The position numbers were made by a program, and so were the translations under genes. Below, in pieces: positions 2,469-59,631 of a stretch of 64,000 nucleotides of DNA. The stretch is from an uncultured Candidatus Finniella sp. (GTDB taxonomy: Bacteria > Pseudomonadota > Alphaproteobacteria > Paracaedibacterales > VGCI01): NCBI GenBank assembly GCA_964424515.1, contig CAYRJJ010000001.1, positions 1,747-65,746 on the forward strand, in the 5' to 3' direction. The number at the start of each line of letters is the position of its first letter. Position 1 is the stretch's first letter. A model generated the notes under the pieces. That model ran no database searches, had not been told where the DNA came from, and saw nothing but the letters and a program-made list of their open reading frames with translations.

Positions 2469-2681
2469 CAGCGATTCCCGCTAGGGAAACATATAAGCTT
2501 TTGTTTTTATAAATTTTCTTTCAAATATATCTGCGAAAAAATCACATATCTCTTTGTTATTTATGGGAAAAGTTATTCATATAAAATCAATAACAATAAT
2601 ATAAGGGGATTTTTCACAAATATATTTTAATAAAACAATTTATTATCCAATCATTAGCCTATTTTTCAGCGGGAATCGCTG
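2469..2681. mobile_element. MITE-like element R1, copy 1 (213 bp, 14-bp TIR CAGCGATTCCCGCT, 9-bp TSD ACAAAAGAA)
   Basis: Left end 2469-2482 is cagcgattcccgct. Right end 2668-2681 is agcgggaatcgctg, its perfect reverse complement. Flanking direct repeat acaaaagaa at 2460-2468 and 2682-2690. AT-rich non-coding interior. A second copy is at 33774-33936. Confidence 0.75.
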
Positions 2682-2806
2682 ACAAAAGAAGGATTATCTT
2701 TAACATACTTAATCATGTCTAATTATTGAAATAACGCGTATTCCTGTTTCTTTGATGCTCAATTACGGATGAGCTTGAAGCGACAAAGAACACGGGAATT
2801 ACTCCT

Positions 2807-8456: not shown

Positions 8457-8981
8457 ATGACTAACCATAGTGTATTTTTCAGGGCGCTTCCTTTTTTGTG
8501 CATCACGCTCTTTCTTTCTTCGTTAGCCTGGGGAGCTGAAAATGAGGATGATGCCGCAAACCAGCCAGAGGAGGCGACGGCAAATGCGGGTAGCGCGCCC
8601 TCTCCTTCTTCCGAGCAACCGTCAGAATCTGAACACGAAGAGGCTGGACAAGAAGATAAAGCAGATACGGCTGATGCATCCTCTCCTCCTTCCGAGCAAC
8701 CGCCAGAATCTGAACACGATGAGAGCGGACACGAGAGTGAAGCAGATGCGCCAGCAAGTGAGAAAGATGAGCAGTCTGAACTTATAGATGAAGAAGCCGA
8801 ATACAATAAAAAACAATTAGAGCACAACAAAAAGGTACTTAAGGTTAATAAAGCTGTAGCGGAACTTAAAGCGGAACAAAAAGAACTGGATAAGGAAGGA
8901 AAGGAAATTGCAAAGAAGGAAAAACAGCTTAAACGACAGTCCTCTTCCCCTGCATCGCATAAGCATAAGGAAGAAGATTAG
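8457..8981 (+). CDS. Secreted acidic protein with tandem 27-aa Ser/Glu/Pro repeat and Lys/Glu coiled-coil tail (orphan)
   Basis: ATG at 8457 is preceded by AAGGAG (8444-8449). Signal peptide ...FLSSLAWG/AE. Two tandem 81-bp units lie at about 8598-8678 and 8679-8755. The C-terminus is KAEQKELDKEGKEIAKKEKQLK. Confidence 0.6.
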   Translation: MTNHSVFFRALPFLCITLFLSSLAWGAENEDDAANQPEEATANAGSAPSPSSEQPSESEHEEAGQEDKADTADASSPPSEQPPESEHDESGHESEADAPASEKDEQSELIDEEAEYNKKQLEHNKKVLKVNKAVAELKAEQKELDKEGKEIAKKEKQLKRQSSSPASHKHKEED

Positions 8982-8982
8982 T

Positions 8983-9082
8983 CTTCTTGCGAAACCATCA
9001 CCTTTTGCTCCATGGCGTCGTCAAAAATTTGTTCGTGATCCTCATGTACTCTTATGTACACTCCGGTCACGAACGAATTTTT
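8983..9082. repeat. Dispersed repeat R2, copy 1 (84-bp core plus hairpin extension), immediately 3' of a stop codon
   Basis: Core 8983-9066 is about 94% identical (5 mismatches by eye) to the reverse complement of 52840-52923. It contains the long hairpin aaaaatttgttcgtga...tcacgaacgaattttt. Confidence 0.6.
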
Positions 9083-10475: not shown

Positions 10476-10660
10476 GGCGTTTTATTTGTCCTTGCTTGTT
10501 AGGTTCCATCCATATTTATAGTAGGGAATCATGACTTCAAAAAGGCAAAAAATCTACCATTTCTGTCATGGCGAGAACACTTGAAAAAAATCTCGTTGAT
10601 GGTTTCCGGAATGAGCATGGCCGTTGGCTCCGCCATAACAAAAAATTGGCCATTTTCCTG

Positions 10661-10806
10661 GGGCGTGTCATCAATTGAAGGATTTTGTGGCGAAAATGGC
10701 GGGTTTTGAGAACCGTATCGCAAGAATACTTAAGGCGTATTTTTAGAAACGGAAGCGCAGAAAACTGCCATTTGCAGTCCAAAAGCCGATAGTTGATAAC
10801 ACGCCC
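10661..10806. mobile_element. MITE-like element R3, copy 1 (146 bp, imperfect ~16-bp TIR GGGCGTGTYATCAAYT)
   Basis: The ends gggcgtgtcatcaatt and agttgataacacgccc are inverted repeats. The whole element is about 85-88% identical to the reverse complement of 45936-46079. It fills the gap just 3' of the folA stop. Confidence 0.7.
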
Positions 10807-11342
10807 TAAACTCTTTTTCTTTTTTCCCGTCCTGAAGGGCTAGGAAACCTGGTATATTTATAAATTGTAAAGTCCTTCTCTTTTCTGATCATTTCTTGAT
10901 CCCAGCCTTCTAAAAGTTCCAAAGGGAAAATAGTGTCCCCTTCATAAAATTTATGGATTTGCGTCAATAAAAATTTGTTCACAAGGTTGGCCTTCAAGAA
11001 TAGCTTTGTCATTTCTGCGCCGCCAATCATGTAGCTTTCCTTTTGGAACGGTAAATCCGTTAATGCCAGAAAATCGTTCAATGAAGAAACAAAAACAATC
11101 GTTTCATTTAAGAAAAATGGTTCTTTATATTTTTTTGAAAAAACAATATTGAAACGATCTTTTAAAATGGTTGGCGGTATGGACTCATAAGTTTTGCGGC
11201 CCATAATCATGAGGCGCTGATATGTCGTACAGCGGAAATGTTCTAACTCTTCAGGATAAGACCAGGGTAATGTTCCCATTTTTCCAATAACACCCCTCGG
11301 ATCACAAGCCATAAGGCCAACAATTTTTCTGATATGCATCAT
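10806..11342 (-). CDS. folA: Dihydrofolate reductase
   Basis: 178 aa. IGKMGTLPW, MGRKTYESIP and YMIGGAEM motifs of type I DHFR. Confidence 0.8.
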   Translation of the reverse strand: MMHIRKIVGLMACDPRGVIGKMGTLPWSYPEELEHFRCTTYQRLMIMGRKTYESIPPTILKDRFNIVFSKKYKEPFFLNETIVFVSSLNDFLALTDLPFQKESYMIGGAEMTKLFLKANLVNKFLLTQIHKFYEGDTIFPLELLEGWDQEMIRKEKDFTIYKYTRFPSPSGREKRKRV

Positions 11343-33680: not shown

Positions 33681-33773
33681 CCTTTAAGGAAACTGTGCGC
33701 TTCCGGCAAGCTGGCGTTCCGTCATTTATAAATTTTAGGGTTACGCATATGTGAATATTCAGTTAGAGGTTGC

Positions 33774-33936
33774 CAGCGACTCCCGCTGAAAAACAGGCAA
33801 ATGATTTGATAATAAATTGTTTTATTAAGATATATTTGCGAAAAATCCCCCTATACTATTGATTTTATATGAATAATTATTCCCATCAATAACAAGGAGA
33901 TATGTCATTTTTTTGCAGATATAGCGGGAATTGCTC
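33774..33936. mobile_element. MITE-like element R1, copy 2 (163 bp, degenerate TIRs, opposite orientation to copy 1)
   Basis: Ends are cagcgactcccgct and agcgggaattgctc. The interior aligns at about 88% to the reverse complement of 2469-2681, with one ~45-bp and one 6-bp gap. No TSD is visible. Confidence 0.7.
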
Positions 33937-40046: not shown

Positions 40047-40148
40047 TACGCGCCTTAAGCTAAACTATGCTTTGCGTCCCGGTTCTCAAAATCACTTGCC
40101 TTTGACGCAAAAGTTTCTTGAATAAATGGTAAGTTTATTATTTCCAGA
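40047..40148. repeat. Dispersed repeat R5, copy 1
   Basis: It shares ...gctttgcgt...tttcttgaataaa(t/g)gtaa(g/a)gtttattatttccaga with 59459-59547 in the same orientation. It contains the internal hairpin ctttgcgtc/gacgcaaag. It lies just 3' of the fabG stop. Confidence 0.5.
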
Positions 40149-40152
40149 CCCC

Positions 40153-40905
40153 CTAACTCATTAACATCCCCCCGTTAATATGAAGCGTCTGGCCTGTAAT
40201 ATAGCCAGCTTCCGGGCTGGCCAGGTAGACCGCTCCGGTGGCGATTTCTTCGGGGGTTCCCATTCGTCCTTGGGGGATAGACGTTAAAATTTTTTCCTTC
40301 ACATTTTCGGGCAAATCATCCGTCATGGCTGAAGCGATAAATCCGGGGGCAATGCAATTAACTGTTATACCGCGGCTGGCAACTTCCTGGGCAAGGGATT
40401 TGGAGAGGCCAATAACGCCAGCTTTGGTTGCTGCATAATTTGACTGACCCGTATTTCCTGTGAGACCCACAACGGAACTGATATTAATGATTCGTCCTGT
40501 GCGGCGTTTCATCATGGATTTTAAAGCAGCCCGGCACAGACGAAAGCAGGATGTCAGGTTTACATCCAGAACTTGCGCCCAATCTTCATCTTTCAGGCGT
40601 ATGGAAAGCCCATCGCGGGTAATGCTGGCATTGTTGACGAGAATATCCACTTTACCCATGAGTTCTTCCGCTTTTGGAAACAGGCTTTCTATGGCTTGGG
40701 GATTCGCCAGGTTACAAGGGATAACATAAACCTGATTTTTTGAACCTGTCGCTTTTAATTCCGCAGCCAGGGATTGAAGCGCCTCTTCGCGTGTACCAGA
40801 AATGGCAAGGGTTGCGCCTTGAGCATGGAAAGCACGGGCGATTGCGCTGCCAATTCCCCCTGAAGCGCCTGTAATGAGCGCCATCTGATCCGTTAGGTGA
40901 AACAT
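40153..40905 (-). CDS. fabG: 3-oxoacyl-ACP reductase
   Basis: 250 aa. TGASGGIG, NNASI, and the YAATKAG catalytic motif. Confidence 0.95.
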   Translation of the reverse strand: MFHLTDQMALITGASGGIGSAIARAFHAQGATLAISGTREEALQSLAAELKATGSKNQVYVIPCNLANPQAIESLFPKAEELMGKVDILVNNASITRDGLSIRLKDEDWAQVLDVNLTSCFRLCRAALKSMMKRRTGRIINISSVVGLTGNTGQSNYAATKAGVIGLSKSLAQEVASRGITVNCIAPGFIASAMTDDLPENVKEKILTSIPQGRMGTPEEIATGAVYLASPEAGYITGQTLHINGGMLMS

Positions 40906-41897: not shown

Positions 41898-42884
41898 TTA
41901 CAATAATTGATTGTATTCTTTATACCAGGCCACTAAAAGAGGGATTCCCGTATGGATACGGGTGGATGGCGCATAACCAAAGTCCCGGGCAGCGGCGGAG
42001 ATATCGGCTGATGTTACGGGAACGTCTCCATCCTGCAGGGGCAAGAAATTTTTGATTGCCGTGATATTTAATGACTTTTCCAGAATTTCAATAAAGTCCA
42101 TGAGGGATTCACTATGATGGTTCCCTAAATTATAGACAGGATGCAAGTGATCTCTCGCCACCTTGGGGATGTGGGCTAACGCCCCTAAAATACCATCCAC
42201 AATATCATTGATATAAGTATAGTCCCGTGCCATTTTTCCATGGTTATAAACATCAATCGGTTCACCTCCCACCATGGCCTTTATAAATTTGAAGGCGGAC
42301 ATATCTGGCCGTCCCCAAGGTCCATAAACCGTAAAGAACCGTAAACCTGTTACGGGAAGGCTATATAAAGAGTGGTAGGACTGCGCCATAAGCTCATTGC
42401 TTCGTTTCGTTGCTGCGTATAAGGACATCGGTGAGTCTGTGCGGTGTGTTTCGGAAAAAGGCATTTCCTTATTCGTTCCATACACGGAAGATGTGCTTGC
42501 GTAGACCAGATGCTGAAAGCCTGGTTGATACCGGCACAACTCCAGAATCACCATAAAACCCATGATATTGCTTGTAATGTAGGGATAGGGGTCAAGCAGG
42601 GAATAACGAACGCCCGCCTGGGCTGCCAAATGAATGACATGATGAATGGGAGCATGGGCATCCCAGACGTTTTTCATGTCTTCCCGGCTGCTTATATCAA
42701 CATTATGGAAGTGAAAGTCAGGATAAGCCTGAAGGCGCTTAAGGCGGTCTTCCTTCAGCTTAACGCTGTAATAGGGGTTCATATTATCAACGCCGACAAC
42801 GGTTTTCCCTTGTTTTAAAAGAGAAAGCGCCGTGTGGAAACCAATAAACCCGGCGGCCCCCGTTACCATAACAGGTAATATCAT
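41898..42884 (-). CDS. NAD-dependent sugar-nucleotide epimerase (UDP-glucuronate 4-epimerase-like SDR)
   Basis: 328 aa. VTGAAGFIGFH Rossmann motif and the YAATK catalytic motif of extended SDRs. Confidence 0.85.
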   Translation of the reverse strand: MILPVMVTGAAGFIGFHTALSLLKQGKTVVGVDNMNPYYSVKLKEDRLKRLQAYPDFHFHNVDISSREDMKNVWDAHAPIHHVIHLAAQAGVRYSLLDPYPYITSNIMGFMVILELCRYQPGFQHLVYASTSSVYGTNKEMPFSETHRTDSPMSLYAATKRSNELMAQSYHSLYSLPVTGLRFFTVYGPWGRPDMSAFKFIKAMVGGEPIDVYNHGKMARDYTYINDIVDGILGALAHIPKVARDHLHPVYNLGNHHSESLMDFIEILEKSLNITAIKNFLPLQDGDVPVTSADISAAARDFGYAPSTRIHTGIPLLVAWYKEYNQLL

Positions 42885-43135
42885 GGTCTAGCCGGCTTTA
42901 ATTCGCAGCATAGGACAAAGTAACGACAATTTTTCACCATAGCCCTAAGGGGGATCCAGACCCGACTGAACGTTCCGCCATACTATATGCTCCTTCTTGC
43001 ACCCGATAATGGGAAAACTATAAGGTATTGAGATAGTGAACTCAAGGGGTTTGGCGGAATTGTTTTTCTTCCATAGACCATCCTTCTTCATACTGTAAAA
43101 ATACTTCCCGGCATTCTTGATGTATTTTAATAAAA

Positions 43136-43373
43136 CCTGATTACCAACAATGTTCAGCTTGCTTTTGGGGCTTATTAAAACTAGGAGAATTCTTGATGTT
43201 TTACGACACATACCCCTAAATTTGACCAGGATTTTGTAAAAATAAACCGTCTAAAGCCAGTTGCTACGACAAAAATTAACCTCCATAACATATACTTAAA
43301 CCCAAGGAATCACTGGCTAAATCAATGAATTTCCTAGTCCTGAAAAGCAAGCTGAACATTGTTGGTAATCAGG
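43136..43373. mobile_element. MITE-like element R6 (238 bp, perfect 31-bp TIRs, 8-bp TSD TAATAAAA)
   Basis: 43136-43166 is cctgattaccaacaatgttcagcttgctttt, the exact reverse complement of 43343-43373. Flanking direct repeat taataaaa at 43128-43135 and 43374-43381. There is no ORF of transposase size inside. Confidence 0.8.
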
Positions 43374-43424
43374 TAATAAAATGATCTGCGCCGGGTTTCG
43401 CTTCTCATCGCGCCTGCCAGATAG

Positions 43425-44450
43425 CTAACACTGCCGTTCAAGGCTATATTCGATTAAGCCTGCCAACAAGTTTTTGATGGGATGCTCAGGGAGCGTCTCA
43501 AGAGCCTGACGCGCTTTTTCCCCATAGACGACGGCCAGGTCATAAGCTTTACGCAAGCCATTGCGCTTGTGAAGGATCTCGATGGCTGTGGCTAAATCTT
43601 CCGGTGTTTGGCGTTGATCAATAAGGGTCCTTTTAAAAAATTGTTTTTCATCGTTTTGGCAGTGAGGGTAGGCCAGGATAACGGGAAGCGTGAGCTTCCC
43701 TTCTTTAAAATCATCACCGGCTTCTTTGCCCAGGCATCCGGCATTCGCGCAATAGTCAAGAATATCATCAATAATCTGGAAAGCCATGCCCAGGTTTTGC
43801 CCGTAAGCGCTTAAAGCGGAAGCATGCACGGTAGCGTTCGCCATGAGGGCGCTGACCTCACAGGCTGCGGCAAACAACGTTGCCGTTTTTGCCTCAATAA
43901 TACGTAAGGAGTCTTCAACTGTGATATCCAGGTTATGGCAAAGAGAAAGCTGGAGGACTTCTCCTTCAGAAATGCAAGCGGCTGCATCGGCCAGGATCTT
44001 TAAAACTTCAGCATGATTAGCTTTGATCATGAGTTGAAAAGACCGGGCGAACAAGAAATCGCCAACGAGAACGCTCGCCTCGTTTCCCCAGAGGTCATTG
44101 GCCGTAGGGAGGTTCCGGCGTAACTTGGACTCATCAATGACATCATCGTGAAGAAGCGTAGCGGTGTGGATAAATTCAACCGCTGCCGCTAACCCGAGCG
44201 CCTCCTCTCCTTCTTCTTTAAAAAGGCGGAAGCTGGCGACGGTGAGCAAAGGCCGCAAGCGCTTGCCGCCCGCATGGATCAGATGGCGCCCTATGGTTGG
44301 AATCAGGGAAATGGAGCTATCAAGATGGCGGTCAATGATCTGGTCAACCTTTCTCATATCCTCATGAAGAAGGATTTTCAGGGTTAAGAGGGGGTCATGA
44401 TCACTTTTTTTGAGAGCGGCTAGGGGCATTGAGCTAAAAAATCCATCCAT
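43425..44450 (-). CDS. ispB: Polyprenyl (octaprenyl) diphosphate synthase
   Basis: 341 aa. First and second Asp-rich motifs LLHDDVIDES and IIDDILD. Confidence 0.9.
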   Translation of the reverse strand: MDGFFSSMPLAALKKSDHDPLLTLKILLHEDMRKVDQIIDRHLDSSISLIPTIGRHLIHAGGKRLRPLLTVASFRLFKEEGEEALGLAAAVEFIHTATLLHDDVIDESKLRRNLPTANDLWGNEASVLVGDFLFARSFQLMIKANHAEVLKILADAAACISEGEVLQLSLCHNLDITVEDSLRIIEAKTATLFAAACEVSALMANATVHASALSAYGQNLGMAFQIIDDILDYCANAGCLGKEAGDDFKEGKLTLPVILAYPHCQNDEKQFFKRTLIDQRQTPEDLATAIEILHKRNGLRKAYDLAVVYGEKARQALETLPEHPIKNLLAGLIEYSLERQC

Positions 44451-45321: not shown

Positions 45322-45936
45322 ATGTTTCGTAAATTCTCGCACTGGTTTGATTCTCCCCCTGCGGGCAAAGCTTCTCATCATGCAGGGGGGCGACCTTGCG
45401 GGTCTCCGGGGTGCCTTGATGAAGGAATGTACCGGGCGCCAAAGTCGCGGCATCACTTGGAATTGGGGGTGGATGACTGGCATTGGTTTTGCCTGATTCA
45501 CGTGCGCGACTATAATGCCCAATGGAATTATTACAGCAATATGTCAGAGACGCAGATTGAACAGGAACGCCGTGCAGATATGACATGGCAACGTCCCTCA
45601 TGGCCCCTTGGGGCTTTTTCGGGCATGCAAGCCGGGAAAAAAAGAGGGCAGCAGGCCCATTCCGGACAATCATTTCAAGATCCCTTTGACCTTTTTAAGG
45701 ATGCCCCTTCATCCCCCCATGCTTTTCCCCAGCCAGGTTTTTCTCCCCGGTCCCCGGAAGGGAAAGCGCTCACCATTTTTGGGTTATCCTACCCTTATTC
45801 GCAGAGTGAGCTGCGGCAACGGTACCGGACCCTTGTCAAAAAGAACCATCCGGATACCAATGGGGGTAGCCGAGAAGCGGAAGAAGCCATTAAGCGCATT
45901 AATGAGGCATATGAAGTTCTGAAAGGGATCTGCTAG
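45322..45936 (+). CDS. C-terminal J-domain protein
   Basis: 204 aa. The C-terminus LRQRYRTLVKKNHPDTNGGSREAEEAIKRINEAYEVLK is a J-domain with HPD. The N-terminus is Cys/His/Trp-rich. Confidence 0.8.
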   Translation: MFRKFSHWFDSPPAGKASHHAGGRPCGSPGCLDEGMYRAPKSRHHLELGVDDWHWFCLIHVRDYNAQWNYYSNMSETQIEQERRADMTWQRPSWPLGAFSGMQAGKKRGQQAHSGQSFQDPFDLFKDAPSSPHAFPQPGFSPRSPEGKALTIFGLSYPYSQSELRQRYRTLVKKNHPDTNGGSREAEEAIKRINEAYEVLKGIC

Positions 45937-46079
45937 GGCGCCTCATCAATTGTCATCTTTTGGTCTGCAAGTGGCGGTTTTCTGCGCTTCCGTTTCTAAA
46001 AATACGTCTTTGTATTCTGCGTTACGGCTCTCGAAACCCGCCATTTTCGCCACAAAATCCTTCAATTGATGACATGCCC
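45936..46079. mobile_element. MITE-like element R3, copy 2 (144 bp, inverted relative to copy 1)
   Basis: It aligns end to end with the reverse complement of 10661-10806. It starts within or at the stop codon of the J-domain gene. Confidence 0.7.
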
Positions 46080-46381
46080 TAGGGGACGGGTGGGTTTTCA
46101 GTCCGTTTCCAGCCGGCAATGATAGTTGTGCTCATTAACAGTCTTTAAACTTTTACTCTCTAGGCTCCCTCCACTTTTGTAAAAATAGCAGGACAAAGTA
46201 TGTAATTTATTCAAAATAAACAATAAATTAAAAAGGTTGGATAGAACATAAGCCATTATGGGCAATTTAAAAATTTGACCCATCCTGCGGGCAATCTCTA
46301 TAACCTCCCTGTGTGGTTCAATTTTGCTCCCGCTTAACTCTGCGGTTGCTATGTCGCTGCGAGTCAGAAAGGATGAGGATC

Positions 46382-46690: not shown

Positions 46691-46957
46691 TTATCCCCCT
46701 TGTCGTCCGCGTCAGCTTCCGCCACCCGTTACGAGCCGTGAGGGCGGGTGGCGGGGATCTGATCAGACCCTGCAACCACGGCATCGCGCCCCGGCATCGC
46801 CAGGCGTAGAGGGGAAGCAGGAGCCTGGGAAGATGTCTGTTCGTTGCATTAACTTGTAAATCAAGGAATTTTCCGGAATGGGAAATTTCATCCCCGCTTC
46901 CCGCCGACGACCGCCGAGGGGAGGCGGGGCTGCTGACGCGGACAACAAGGGGGATAA
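46691..46957. repeat. Element R7: 267-bp GC-rich segment bounded by 26-bp inverted repeats
   Basis: 46691-46716 is ttatcccccttgtcgtccgcgtcagc, versus 46932-46957 gctgacgcggacaacaagggggataa (25/26 complementary). The interior holds strong hairpins (cgccacccg/cgggtggcg; ccccgcttcccgcc...ggggaggcgggg). Confidence 0.6.
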
Positions 46958-52839: not shown

Positions 52840-52923
52840 CCGGAGTGTACATAAGAGTACGTGAGGATCACGAACGAATTTTTGACGACGCCATGGACCA
52901 AAAGGCGACGGTTTCGCAAGAAG
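52840..52923. repeat. Dispersed repeat R2, copy 2
   Basis: It is the reverse complement of 8983-9066 with 5 mismatches by eye. It fills the 92-bp gap between the convergent lolA and nusB stops almost exactly. Confidence 0.6.
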
Positions 52924-52924
52924 T

Positions 52925-53398
52925 CTATTCTTGCAAGTCTGTGGTCCGAAGAAGTTTTGCCAAAGCATCCAGAGATGCATTAACAAATGCAACTTCTGGA
53001 CCCCCGCTAAATGCTTTCGTAATTTCAATGTATTCATTAATGACGACAGGTACGGGTACAGCCGTATCGCGGCTCAGTTCAAACACAGCTGCCCGTAAAA
53101 TGGCCCGGATAACTGACTCCATGCGTTCCAGGCGCCAGTCTTCAGAAAGCGTCGATGTAATCATTGAATCCAGATCAGCAAGCCGTTCCATGACACCCGT
53201 CACAATGTCCTGGAACAAGGTTTTGTCGGGCGTAATAAACCGCGTCCCATCCACTATTTCATTGAGCCGGTGGTTCAAAAATTCCTGAACGACTTTTTGG
53301 GGCGTGGTTGGTTCTTGTTCCAATTGATAAAGGGCTTGAACAGCAGCGAGGCGGGCTGCTGGACGGCCTTTTACGATCATATTTTTTTTTGGATTCAC
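52925..53398 (-). CDS. nusB: Transcription antitermination factor NusB
   Basis: 157 aa. AARLAAVQALYQLE N-terminal motif and NusB-length helical protein. Confidence 0.9.
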   Translation of the reverse strand: MNPKKNMIVKGRPAARLAAVQALYQLEQEPTTPQKVVQEFLNHRLNEIVDGTRFITPDKTLFQDIVTGVMERLADLDSMITSTLSEDWRLERMESVIRAILRAAVFELSRDTAVPVPVVINEYIEITKAFSGGPEVAFVNASLDALAKLLRTTDLQE

Positions 53399-59458: not shown

Positions 59459-59547
59459 GCTAAGTACGCTTTGCGTACAGCTTCACAAATCCGCTTGCGC
59501 CTGACTCAAAAATTTCTTGAATAAAGGTAAAGTTTATTATTTCCAGA
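59459..59547. repeat. Dispersed repeat R5, copy 2
   Basis: Aligns with 40047-40148 in the same orientation. The 3' third (tttcttgaataaaggtaaagtttattatttccaga) is nearly identical. Confidence 0.5.
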
Positions 59548-59631
59548 TCCCTTAAGAGTGGTTTTGTCAATAAGTCGTTTACTTGTTGTGAGGTATACTT
59601 CAGAAGAATACGAACAAAGGAGGACAACAAA

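Follow-up and report, generated by a model that had tools for sequence, protein, structure and literature searches.

Miniature inverted-repeat transposable elements (MITEs) generally arise from full-length insertion sequences (ISs) by deletion. In the IS1595 family, such an element has been described in Haloquadratum walsbyi, where it measures 165 bp and is present in 7 copies with 25-nt repeats and an 8-bp duplication (PMC3852290, Table 4). For ISApl4, an IS of the IS1016 subgroup, AT-rich 8-bp duplications, such as TTAATAAA and TTATTAAA, and many copies per genome have been reported, as have circles (PMC12561309). Here we analysed a 64,000-nt stretch of DNA from an uncultured Candidatus Finniella sp. 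(contig CAYRJJ010000001.1), hereafter the window, in which a 238-bp unit lies between an ispB-like gene and a string of fatty-acid synthesis genes. We conclude, with a probability of about 0.92, that this unit is a non-coding and non-autonomous MITE with ends of the IS1595 subgroup, which was presumably moved in trans by an IS1595-type transposase and was recently inserted.

A first-pass annotation of the window had proposed a MITE with perfect 31-nt terminal inverted repeats (TIRs) flanked on both sides by an 8-bp target site duplication (TSD), and both features were recovered by reading the sequence: CCTGATTACCAACAATGTTCAGCTTGCTTTT at 43136-43166 has its exact reverse complement at 43343-43373, and TAATAAAA stands directly outside each repeat. 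Searching the window for the 31-mer with up to three mismatches returned these two places only, with 0.00 occurrences expected from 100 shuffles. The perfect arm reaches 32 nt once A43135 and T43374 are included, and the arms given by the repeat finder (43135-43179 and 43330-43374) extend over 45 nt with 87% complementarity. Because TAATAAAA is a common word in the window, occurring 13 times in 64 kb against 5.65 expected, the single 8-mer is weak evidence when taken alone; the duplication is considered real because of the empty site in relatives and of four other insertions carrying their own 8-bp duplications, both described below. The limits of the MITE were fixed in three ways, namely by the point at which homology stops against 17 other ends, by the 246-nt gap in relatives and by blastn segments lying 238 nt apart.

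The empty site was found in contigs from three different samples (L149, Logan SRR32119647; L150, ENA ERZ28614347; L151, ENA ERZ15184948), which were chosen from the 90% clusters of the window IspB and epimerase proteins. These contigs share the gene order ispB-epimerase-fabD-fabG-acpP-fabF with the window and are 95.1-97.7% identical to it over ~5.7 kb on both sides of the MITE. Their ispB-epimerase spacer is 294 nt long compared with 540 nt in the window, and the alignment displays a clean 246-nt gap (238 + 8) with a single TTTTATTA, whereas the window has TTTTATTA, the MITE and a second TTTTATTA; the empty site in the relatives reads ...GCGCAGATCA-TTTTATTA-AAATACATC.... The blastn match is likewise split in two, with 238 nt between the pieces in the window and an 8-nt overlap in the relative. 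This clean gap, together with the one 8-mer copy in the relatives, indicates an insertion with an 8-bp duplication, and the window insertion is later than the split of these near-identical lineages. The recent insertion that had been suggested from the sequence is therefore supported, and the orthologous loci lack the MITE altogether, rather than carrying the same sequence without a TSD, which the first-pass annotation had named as the outcome that would speak against its proposal. Relatives with 75-82% IspB identity (L020-L023 and L146-L148) do not keep the ispB-epimerase order and were unusable for the empty-site comparison.

Metagenome contigs were scanned for exact matches to a 20-mer from the terminal repeat, which yielded 17 contigs, 15 from NCBI assembly JACCDN01, among them L001/L028, identical to the window, and 2 from JGI sample Ga0075163. 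Including the window, 18 ends at 12 distinct sites were obtained; all of them carry one and the same element sequence, each has its own flank, and homology among the ends stops exactly at CCTGATTA. Each matched end lies 86-195 nt from the end of its contig, the short-read assemblies having broken inside the repeat at ~125 nt, so that contigs with the A end (43136 in the window) cover element positions 1 to ~125 and those with the B end (43373) cover ~113 to 238. At all five sites for which both ends were available, with one flank matched to the reverse complement of another, an 8-bp duplication was found (Table 1), and seven further ends mark the remaining sites. Only 8 of the 96 bases in the 12 target 8-mers are G or C. 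By joining flanks through one duplication copy, frames of 121 and 112 aa were restored at two sites and a 346-aa serine-recombinase-like frame at a third, which indicates that some MITE copies interrupt genes. The identity of all copies indicates a recent burst of the MITE, and its mobility, as initially proposed, is well founded on these 12 sites. Other repeat families of the window recur at 79-93% identity in L025, L027, L029, L030 and L037, and these contigs are therefore from the same genome as the window or a very close one; judged by IspB, which shows 72% identity to that of a metagenome-assembled genome, the organism is related to Candidatus Paracaedibacter.

The two flanks of a single target, AATGATTT, in a gene resembling those of serine recombinases come from different samples (L031 from JGI Ga0075163 and L033 from JACCDN01), and the 346-aa frame is the one restored by joining them. 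Both contigs bear a B-type end, so that the orientation of the MITE core is reversed between the samples; this means either that recombination between its 31-nt repeats flips the core or that the site was hit twice.

To assign the ends to a family, as the first-pass annotation had advised for both TSD and tips, reference elements were taken from annotated IS1595-family transposase genes on plasmids, with inverted repeats located around each gene; the family seed protein used for the plasmid search had matched PF12762 (E = 3e-32) before use. Five references of the IS1595 subgroup, 1018-1073 bp in length, were compared: IS1595 of Xanthomonas vasicola, a copy in Xanthomonas citri, ISKpn3, ISAeca5 and a Klebsiella element, the X. 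citri and Klebsiella ones being unnamed. All ten reference ends start with CCTGATTA(C/G)C and both MITE ends with CCTGATTACC, which thus contain the tip CCTGATT; we take this to be the subgroup end given as 'CcTGATT' in the ISfinder table. TCAGC occupies positions 19-23 in 9 of the 10 reference ends and in both MITE ends, a regularity measured in this analysis and not a published one. Perfect 8-bp duplications flank four of the five references (AAGGTTTT, TAACCCTA, TAATGTTT and AAGGAGTA). Three of the references, ISKpn3, ISAeca5 and the Klebsiella element, have their stop codon 5 nt from the right tip, and the MITE has a TAA (43366-43368) at this distance in its B end. Elements of other IS1595-family subgroups (7 elements) have the tips GGCTCTGT, CGCTCTT, GGGAATTAT and ACGGACTT and share the 8-bp duplication; hence the tip points to the subgroup and the duplication length to the family. 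Judged by these end sequences, the MITE is assigned to the IS1595 subgroup of the IS1595 family, and it is filed as a family-dependent derivative and not as an IS of the family because it encodes no PF12762 transposase.

The G+C content of the MITE is 34-37% in overlapping 200-nt windows compared with 47% for the whole window, its longest open reading frame (ORF) is 36 aa, and neither an IS1595-family transposase profile, compared in six frames, nor Rfam gave a match to it. The RNA is predicted to fold into one long hairpin (-93.6 kcal/mol, z = -9.2). An AGGAG motif followed by an ATG (Table 1) may be the leftover ribosome-binding site and start codon of an ancestral transposase gene; this ATG is 60 nt from the tip, compared with start codons at 68-92 nt from the left tip in the five references. 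An 88-aa ORF (window 42945-43211, minus strand) begins with an ATG inside the MITE and runs out of it across a promoter-like site; it had no match in Pfam and was most probably created by the insertion as a side effect.

In the mechanism that we propose, an IS1595-type DDE transposase made elsewhere, and presumably acting in trans, would bind both 31-nt terminal repeats and insert the MITE, by cut-and-paste or through a circular copy, where AT-rich DNA has been cut with an 8-bp stagger; repair of the cut would yield the 8-bp duplication. The window copy would have been inserted recently in this way at the TAATAAAA site 43 nt after ispB, and the identical MITE is present at 11 or more other sites in the organism.

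Table 1. Positions of the MITE, its parts and the neighbouring features in the window, with the 8-bp duplications at the five sites for which both ends were available.
Feature	Position	Strand	Basis or remark
Left TSD copy, 8 bp, TAATAAAA	43128..43135	.	Sequence; single copy at this place in L149-L151
MITE, 238 bp, non-autonomous; named from A end (43136) to B end (43373)	43136..43373	+	
A-end TIR, 31 nt perfect; imperfect pairing continues to 43179	43136..43166	+	Tip CCTGATTACC; TCAGC at 19-23
CTAG within the MITE	43181..43184	.	Site used by an unrelated IS in the copy at L029
AGGAG, 8-nt spacer and ATG (43196-43198), then a 7-codon frame	43183..43198	+	
B-end TIR	43343..43373	-	+ strand: GCT GAA CAT TGT TGG TAA TCAGG
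Right TSD copy, 8 bp, TAATAAAA	43374..43381	.	Sequence
Epimerase gene (NAD-dependent), first of the epimerase-fabD-fabG-acpP-fabF string	41898..42884	-	PF01370, E = 1.4e-52
Sigma-70-like match TTGAGT-17-TATAGT	43017..43045	-	Consensus match only
ispB-like polyprenyl synthase gene	43425..44450	-	PF00348, E = 4.7e-73
8-bp duplication TAACAATA	L027/L026		
8-bp duplication TAACATTA	L025/L032		
8-bp duplication TAGTCTTA	L029/L035		
8-bp duplication AAATCTTA	L030/L037		
8-bp duplication TAATAAAA	window		

With respect to the neighbouring genes, the MITE lies within the minus-strand ispB-epimerase spacer, 43 nt past the ispB stop codon and 243 nt ahead of the epimerase start codon, and the epimerase gene is followed on the same strand by genes for an acyltransferase (FabD-like), a short-chain reductase (FabG-like), an acyl carrier protein and a ketoacyl synthase (FabF-like). 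The first-pass annotation had placed it just 3′ of ispB and in the promoter-proximal region of the epimerase-fab string. The position after ispB and before the string stands, but the MITE is not in the core promoter: the sole promoter-like match for the string is found 82 nt downstream of it, is intact after the insertion and is identical in the three relatives without the MITE. Because this site is downstream of the MITE and the same in MITE-free relatives, the core promoter of the epimerase-fab string is probably unaffected, and the local effect of the insertion is most likely small. An effect on the lipid genes, as had been suggested, is an unproven possibility, with a conserved promoter-like site intervening.

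The insertion could still act at the level of transcript ends. The transcribed minus strand carries TTTTATTAAAAT directly after the 3′ arm of the hairpin, and a read-through transcript from ispB would thus gain a long hairpin with UUUUAUU behind it, and read-through could be lowered as a result. The hairpin and UUUUAUU might accordingly be imagined to terminate or process ispB transcripts and so to uncouple the epimerase-fab genes from ispB. The empty site in the relatives has no terminator-like fold (z = 0.5, no better than shuffled), so the insertion could have made a barrier that was previously absent, whereas the conserved promoter-like site downstream could drive the fab genes either way; the terminator scan gives no score to hairpins of this size. 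We put forward such a regulatory effect tentatively and consider it on the unlikely side.

Several results weigh against a MITE mobilized by an IS1595-type transposase. While the copies that the first-pass annotation had recommended searching for were found, no cognate transposase or full-length parent IS with these ends was recovered in any scan. No transposase gene flanked by these ends is present in the window, in agreement with the initial statement, or in ~100 kb of contigs of the same organism. Each of the 18 ends follows the 238-bp form over 86-195 nt, with a nested IS in L029 as the sole divergence, and, given the coverage of the A-end and B-end contigs, a longer parent with the same ends would have to depart from this form in one or both of its end contigs. 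Among 185,579 species-representative genomes, the 18-nt tip gave 18 matches, approximately the chance number, none of which extended past the 18-mer; among viral contigs, the 17-nt tip gave 12 chance matches only; and in a plasmid collection searched by blastn, the only notable match was a solitary repeat-like site. An index of 5.8 billion proteins, queried with the B-end peptide INEFPSPEKQAEHCW padded to 40 residues, contained no protein with three of its 5-residue words. The metagenome and genome scans were exact-match, by which a parent with slightly different repeats would be missed. Finally, the only IS1595-family transposase seen in the organism belongs to an element, here called IS-Y, whose tips, AATGCTTATCC..., are unlike those of the MITE.

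CCTGATTATCC in L032 is a chance match, as it lies inside a gene and has no partner repeat. L029, in which the A end gives way after 48 nt to other sequence with an ORF start (MQKKYIVRLSEE), was considered as a full-length parent from which the MITE would have derived by an ACTAG-microhomology deletion; it was ruled out, since the same sequence occurs in L027 and at the other L029 end with unrelated flanks and always beside CTAG, which identifies the insert as a separate nested IS. This nested IS was observed at L029 1157-1282 and 1-53 and at L027 1472-1597, with its end at ...CTA|GTGCTCGGTCATGCATAG and 12 codons visible; it may belong to the IS630 family, which has a preference for CTAG with TA duplication. 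The plasmid match is at L041 2501-2535 (Photobacterium damselae plasmid pdp1, NZ_CP150463.1 88847-88881), where 27 of the first 32 nt of the MITE terminal repeat are matched (E = 0.2) with no transposase gene beside the site; it may represent the remnant end of a related IS or a chance match.

These negative results leave room for an orphan burst, in which the MITE, with at least 11 identical copies, polymorphic within the species and accompanied by no matching transposase gene, was moved either by IS-Y or by a transient outside transposase, which would come from another replicon or a co-resident organism. We regard this as doubtful. If true, the opposite orientations at one site would add in-place flipping of the core via the 31-nt repeats. 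The missing helper transposase and the opposite core orientations go beyond the ordinary, and the classification as an IS1595-subgroup MITE is unchanged by them.

More specifically, the MITE could have been cross-mobilized by the diverged IS-Y of the same organism instead of by a parent with identical ends. IS-Y has the only IS1595-family transposase detected in ~100 kb of the organism's contigs, no parent with the MITE's own tips (CCTGATTACCAAC) was found, and IS-Y is itself repeated, as shown by two contigs that break off within it at an identical position (right end at L030 1-125 and L025 1-124). Its C-terminus reads YLAEYTFRFNRRHDPDSLFFRALGACVHAKPVTSQVLFG and its tip AATGCTTATCCGAAAAGTACC, with the stop codon likewise 5 nt from the tip, and among the family members compared, ISAeca5 and ISKpn3 come closest to its C-terminal 37 residues, at 41-43% identity. 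Nevertheless, 12 of the first 23 positions differ between the IS-Y and MITE tips, including the two outermost bases (AA versus CC), and the part of IS-Y seen comprises the last 39 residues and one end. IS-Y is thus a possible but unlikely helper.

It is far less probable that a full-length IS once occupied the window site and was shortened there by internal deletion, so that the window copy did not transpose as a short element. The general origin of MITEs would agree with such decay, as would the possible ribosome-binding site, the ATG and the stop codon placed as in ISKpn3; it is contradicted, however, by identical short copies at other sites, of which the L031 contig covers 177 nt and the L037 contig 195 nt, and the A-end and B-end contigs overlap consistently midway in the 238-bp form. 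That the hairpin is native to the ispB-epimerase spacer, as a terminator or attenuator with 8-mers alike by chance, would suit its strong fold (z = -9.2) and the 13 copies of TAATAAAA, but can be dismissed given that three relatives of 95-98% identity lack its sequence in this spacer and that it occurs at 11 other unrelated sites, some within genes, and has no Rfam match.

Besides the MITE, small repeats are unusually abundant in this genome. A second MITE-like family of ~150 bp with inverted ends TAGGGCGTGTCATCAATTGA and TA flanks was observed in the window (10657-10808 and 45934-46083), in L027 (1250-1400), in L029 (51-196) and in L020 (3533-3716 and 10432-10573). Its copies are 87-93% alike in the organism and 70-73% in a relative with 76% IspB identity; being more diverged and also present in the relative, this family is older than the 238-bp MITE. 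Three families of dispersed repeats, 90-160 nt long and 79-92% identical, were found at window 2526-2685 and 33770-33923 (also L025 6466-6640), at 8974-9066 and 52840-52932 (also L030 10781-10855), and at 40063-40156 and 59462-59555 (also L037 2634-2748). A G+C-rich unit of 267 bp at 46691-46957 is bounded by inverted repeats of 26 nt that agree at 96% (TTATCCCCCTTGTCGTCCGCGTCAGC); it occurs as a single copy in the window and the fetched contigs, with no evident duplication on its flanks. At 8580-8741, an 81-nt unit occurs twice in tandem, the copies being 77% identical; its length is divisible by three, which suggests that 27 residues were duplicated, should this region be coding.

Taken together, the filled site, the empty site, the duplication, the sister copies and the family assignment by end comparison document a clean transposition event in an uncultured alphaproteobacterium, which is probably host-associated and whose lineage is heavily loaded with small mobile elements that have recently been active. 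The short-read assemblies break exactly at the MITE, which bears on the quality of binned genomes. Being located beside essential isoprenoid and fatty-acid genes, the insertion is a natural presence/absence polymorphism that could be used to test the effect of a hairpin element on read-through between neighbouring operons.

Among known systems of small repeats, repetitive extragenic palindromes and bacterial interspersed mosaic elements (REP/BIME) are palindromes of ~20-40 nt with neither terminal inverted repeats bounding an element nor a target duplication, a type ruled out here by the length of 238 bp, the defined tips and the 8-bp duplication. TA-flanked MITEs of the IS630/Tc1 type, of which the window contains one family, are also small, non-coding, hairpin-forming, dispersed and intergenic. 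They duplicate TA only, whereas the present MITE duplicates 8 bp, although four of its five complete duplications end in TA, and its ends are unrelated to those of the TA-flanked family in the window. ISApl4, in contrast to the MITE, is autonomous, being 712 bp long with a transposase gene, its tips read GGGGCTGTACTAGA, and it belongs to a different subgroup.

The H. walsbyi MITE is likewise a short non-coding derivative of the IS1595 family, but its host is archaeal and a putative partner, ISHwa6, is found in the same genome; the likeness is one of description (PMC3852290). MITEs of the IS1595 family having thus already been reported (PMC3852290), the present one reveals no new mechanism. Likeness in sequence is seen with the subgroup references: the CCTGATTACC tip of the MITE is identical to those of ISKpn3, ISAeca5 and the Klebsiella element over 10, 10 and 11 nt, respectively, the ISKpn3 duplication TAACCCTA resembles the MITE duplications TAACAATA and TAACATTA, and in the ISKpn3 end, GCT GAG GGT CAT GGG TAA TCAGG, the TAA stands in the same frame relative to GCTGA as in the MITE. 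In contrast, ISKpn3, ISAeca5 and IS1595 encode a transposase of ~315 aa with a zinc ribbon and PF12762, whereas the 238 bp of the MITE encode nothing, and positions 11-18 and everything inside position 24 of the MITE are unrelated to these three elements. Moreover, the MITE repeats are perfect over 31 nt, while the ends of ISKpn3 and of ISAeca5 diverge from each other after ~15 nt.

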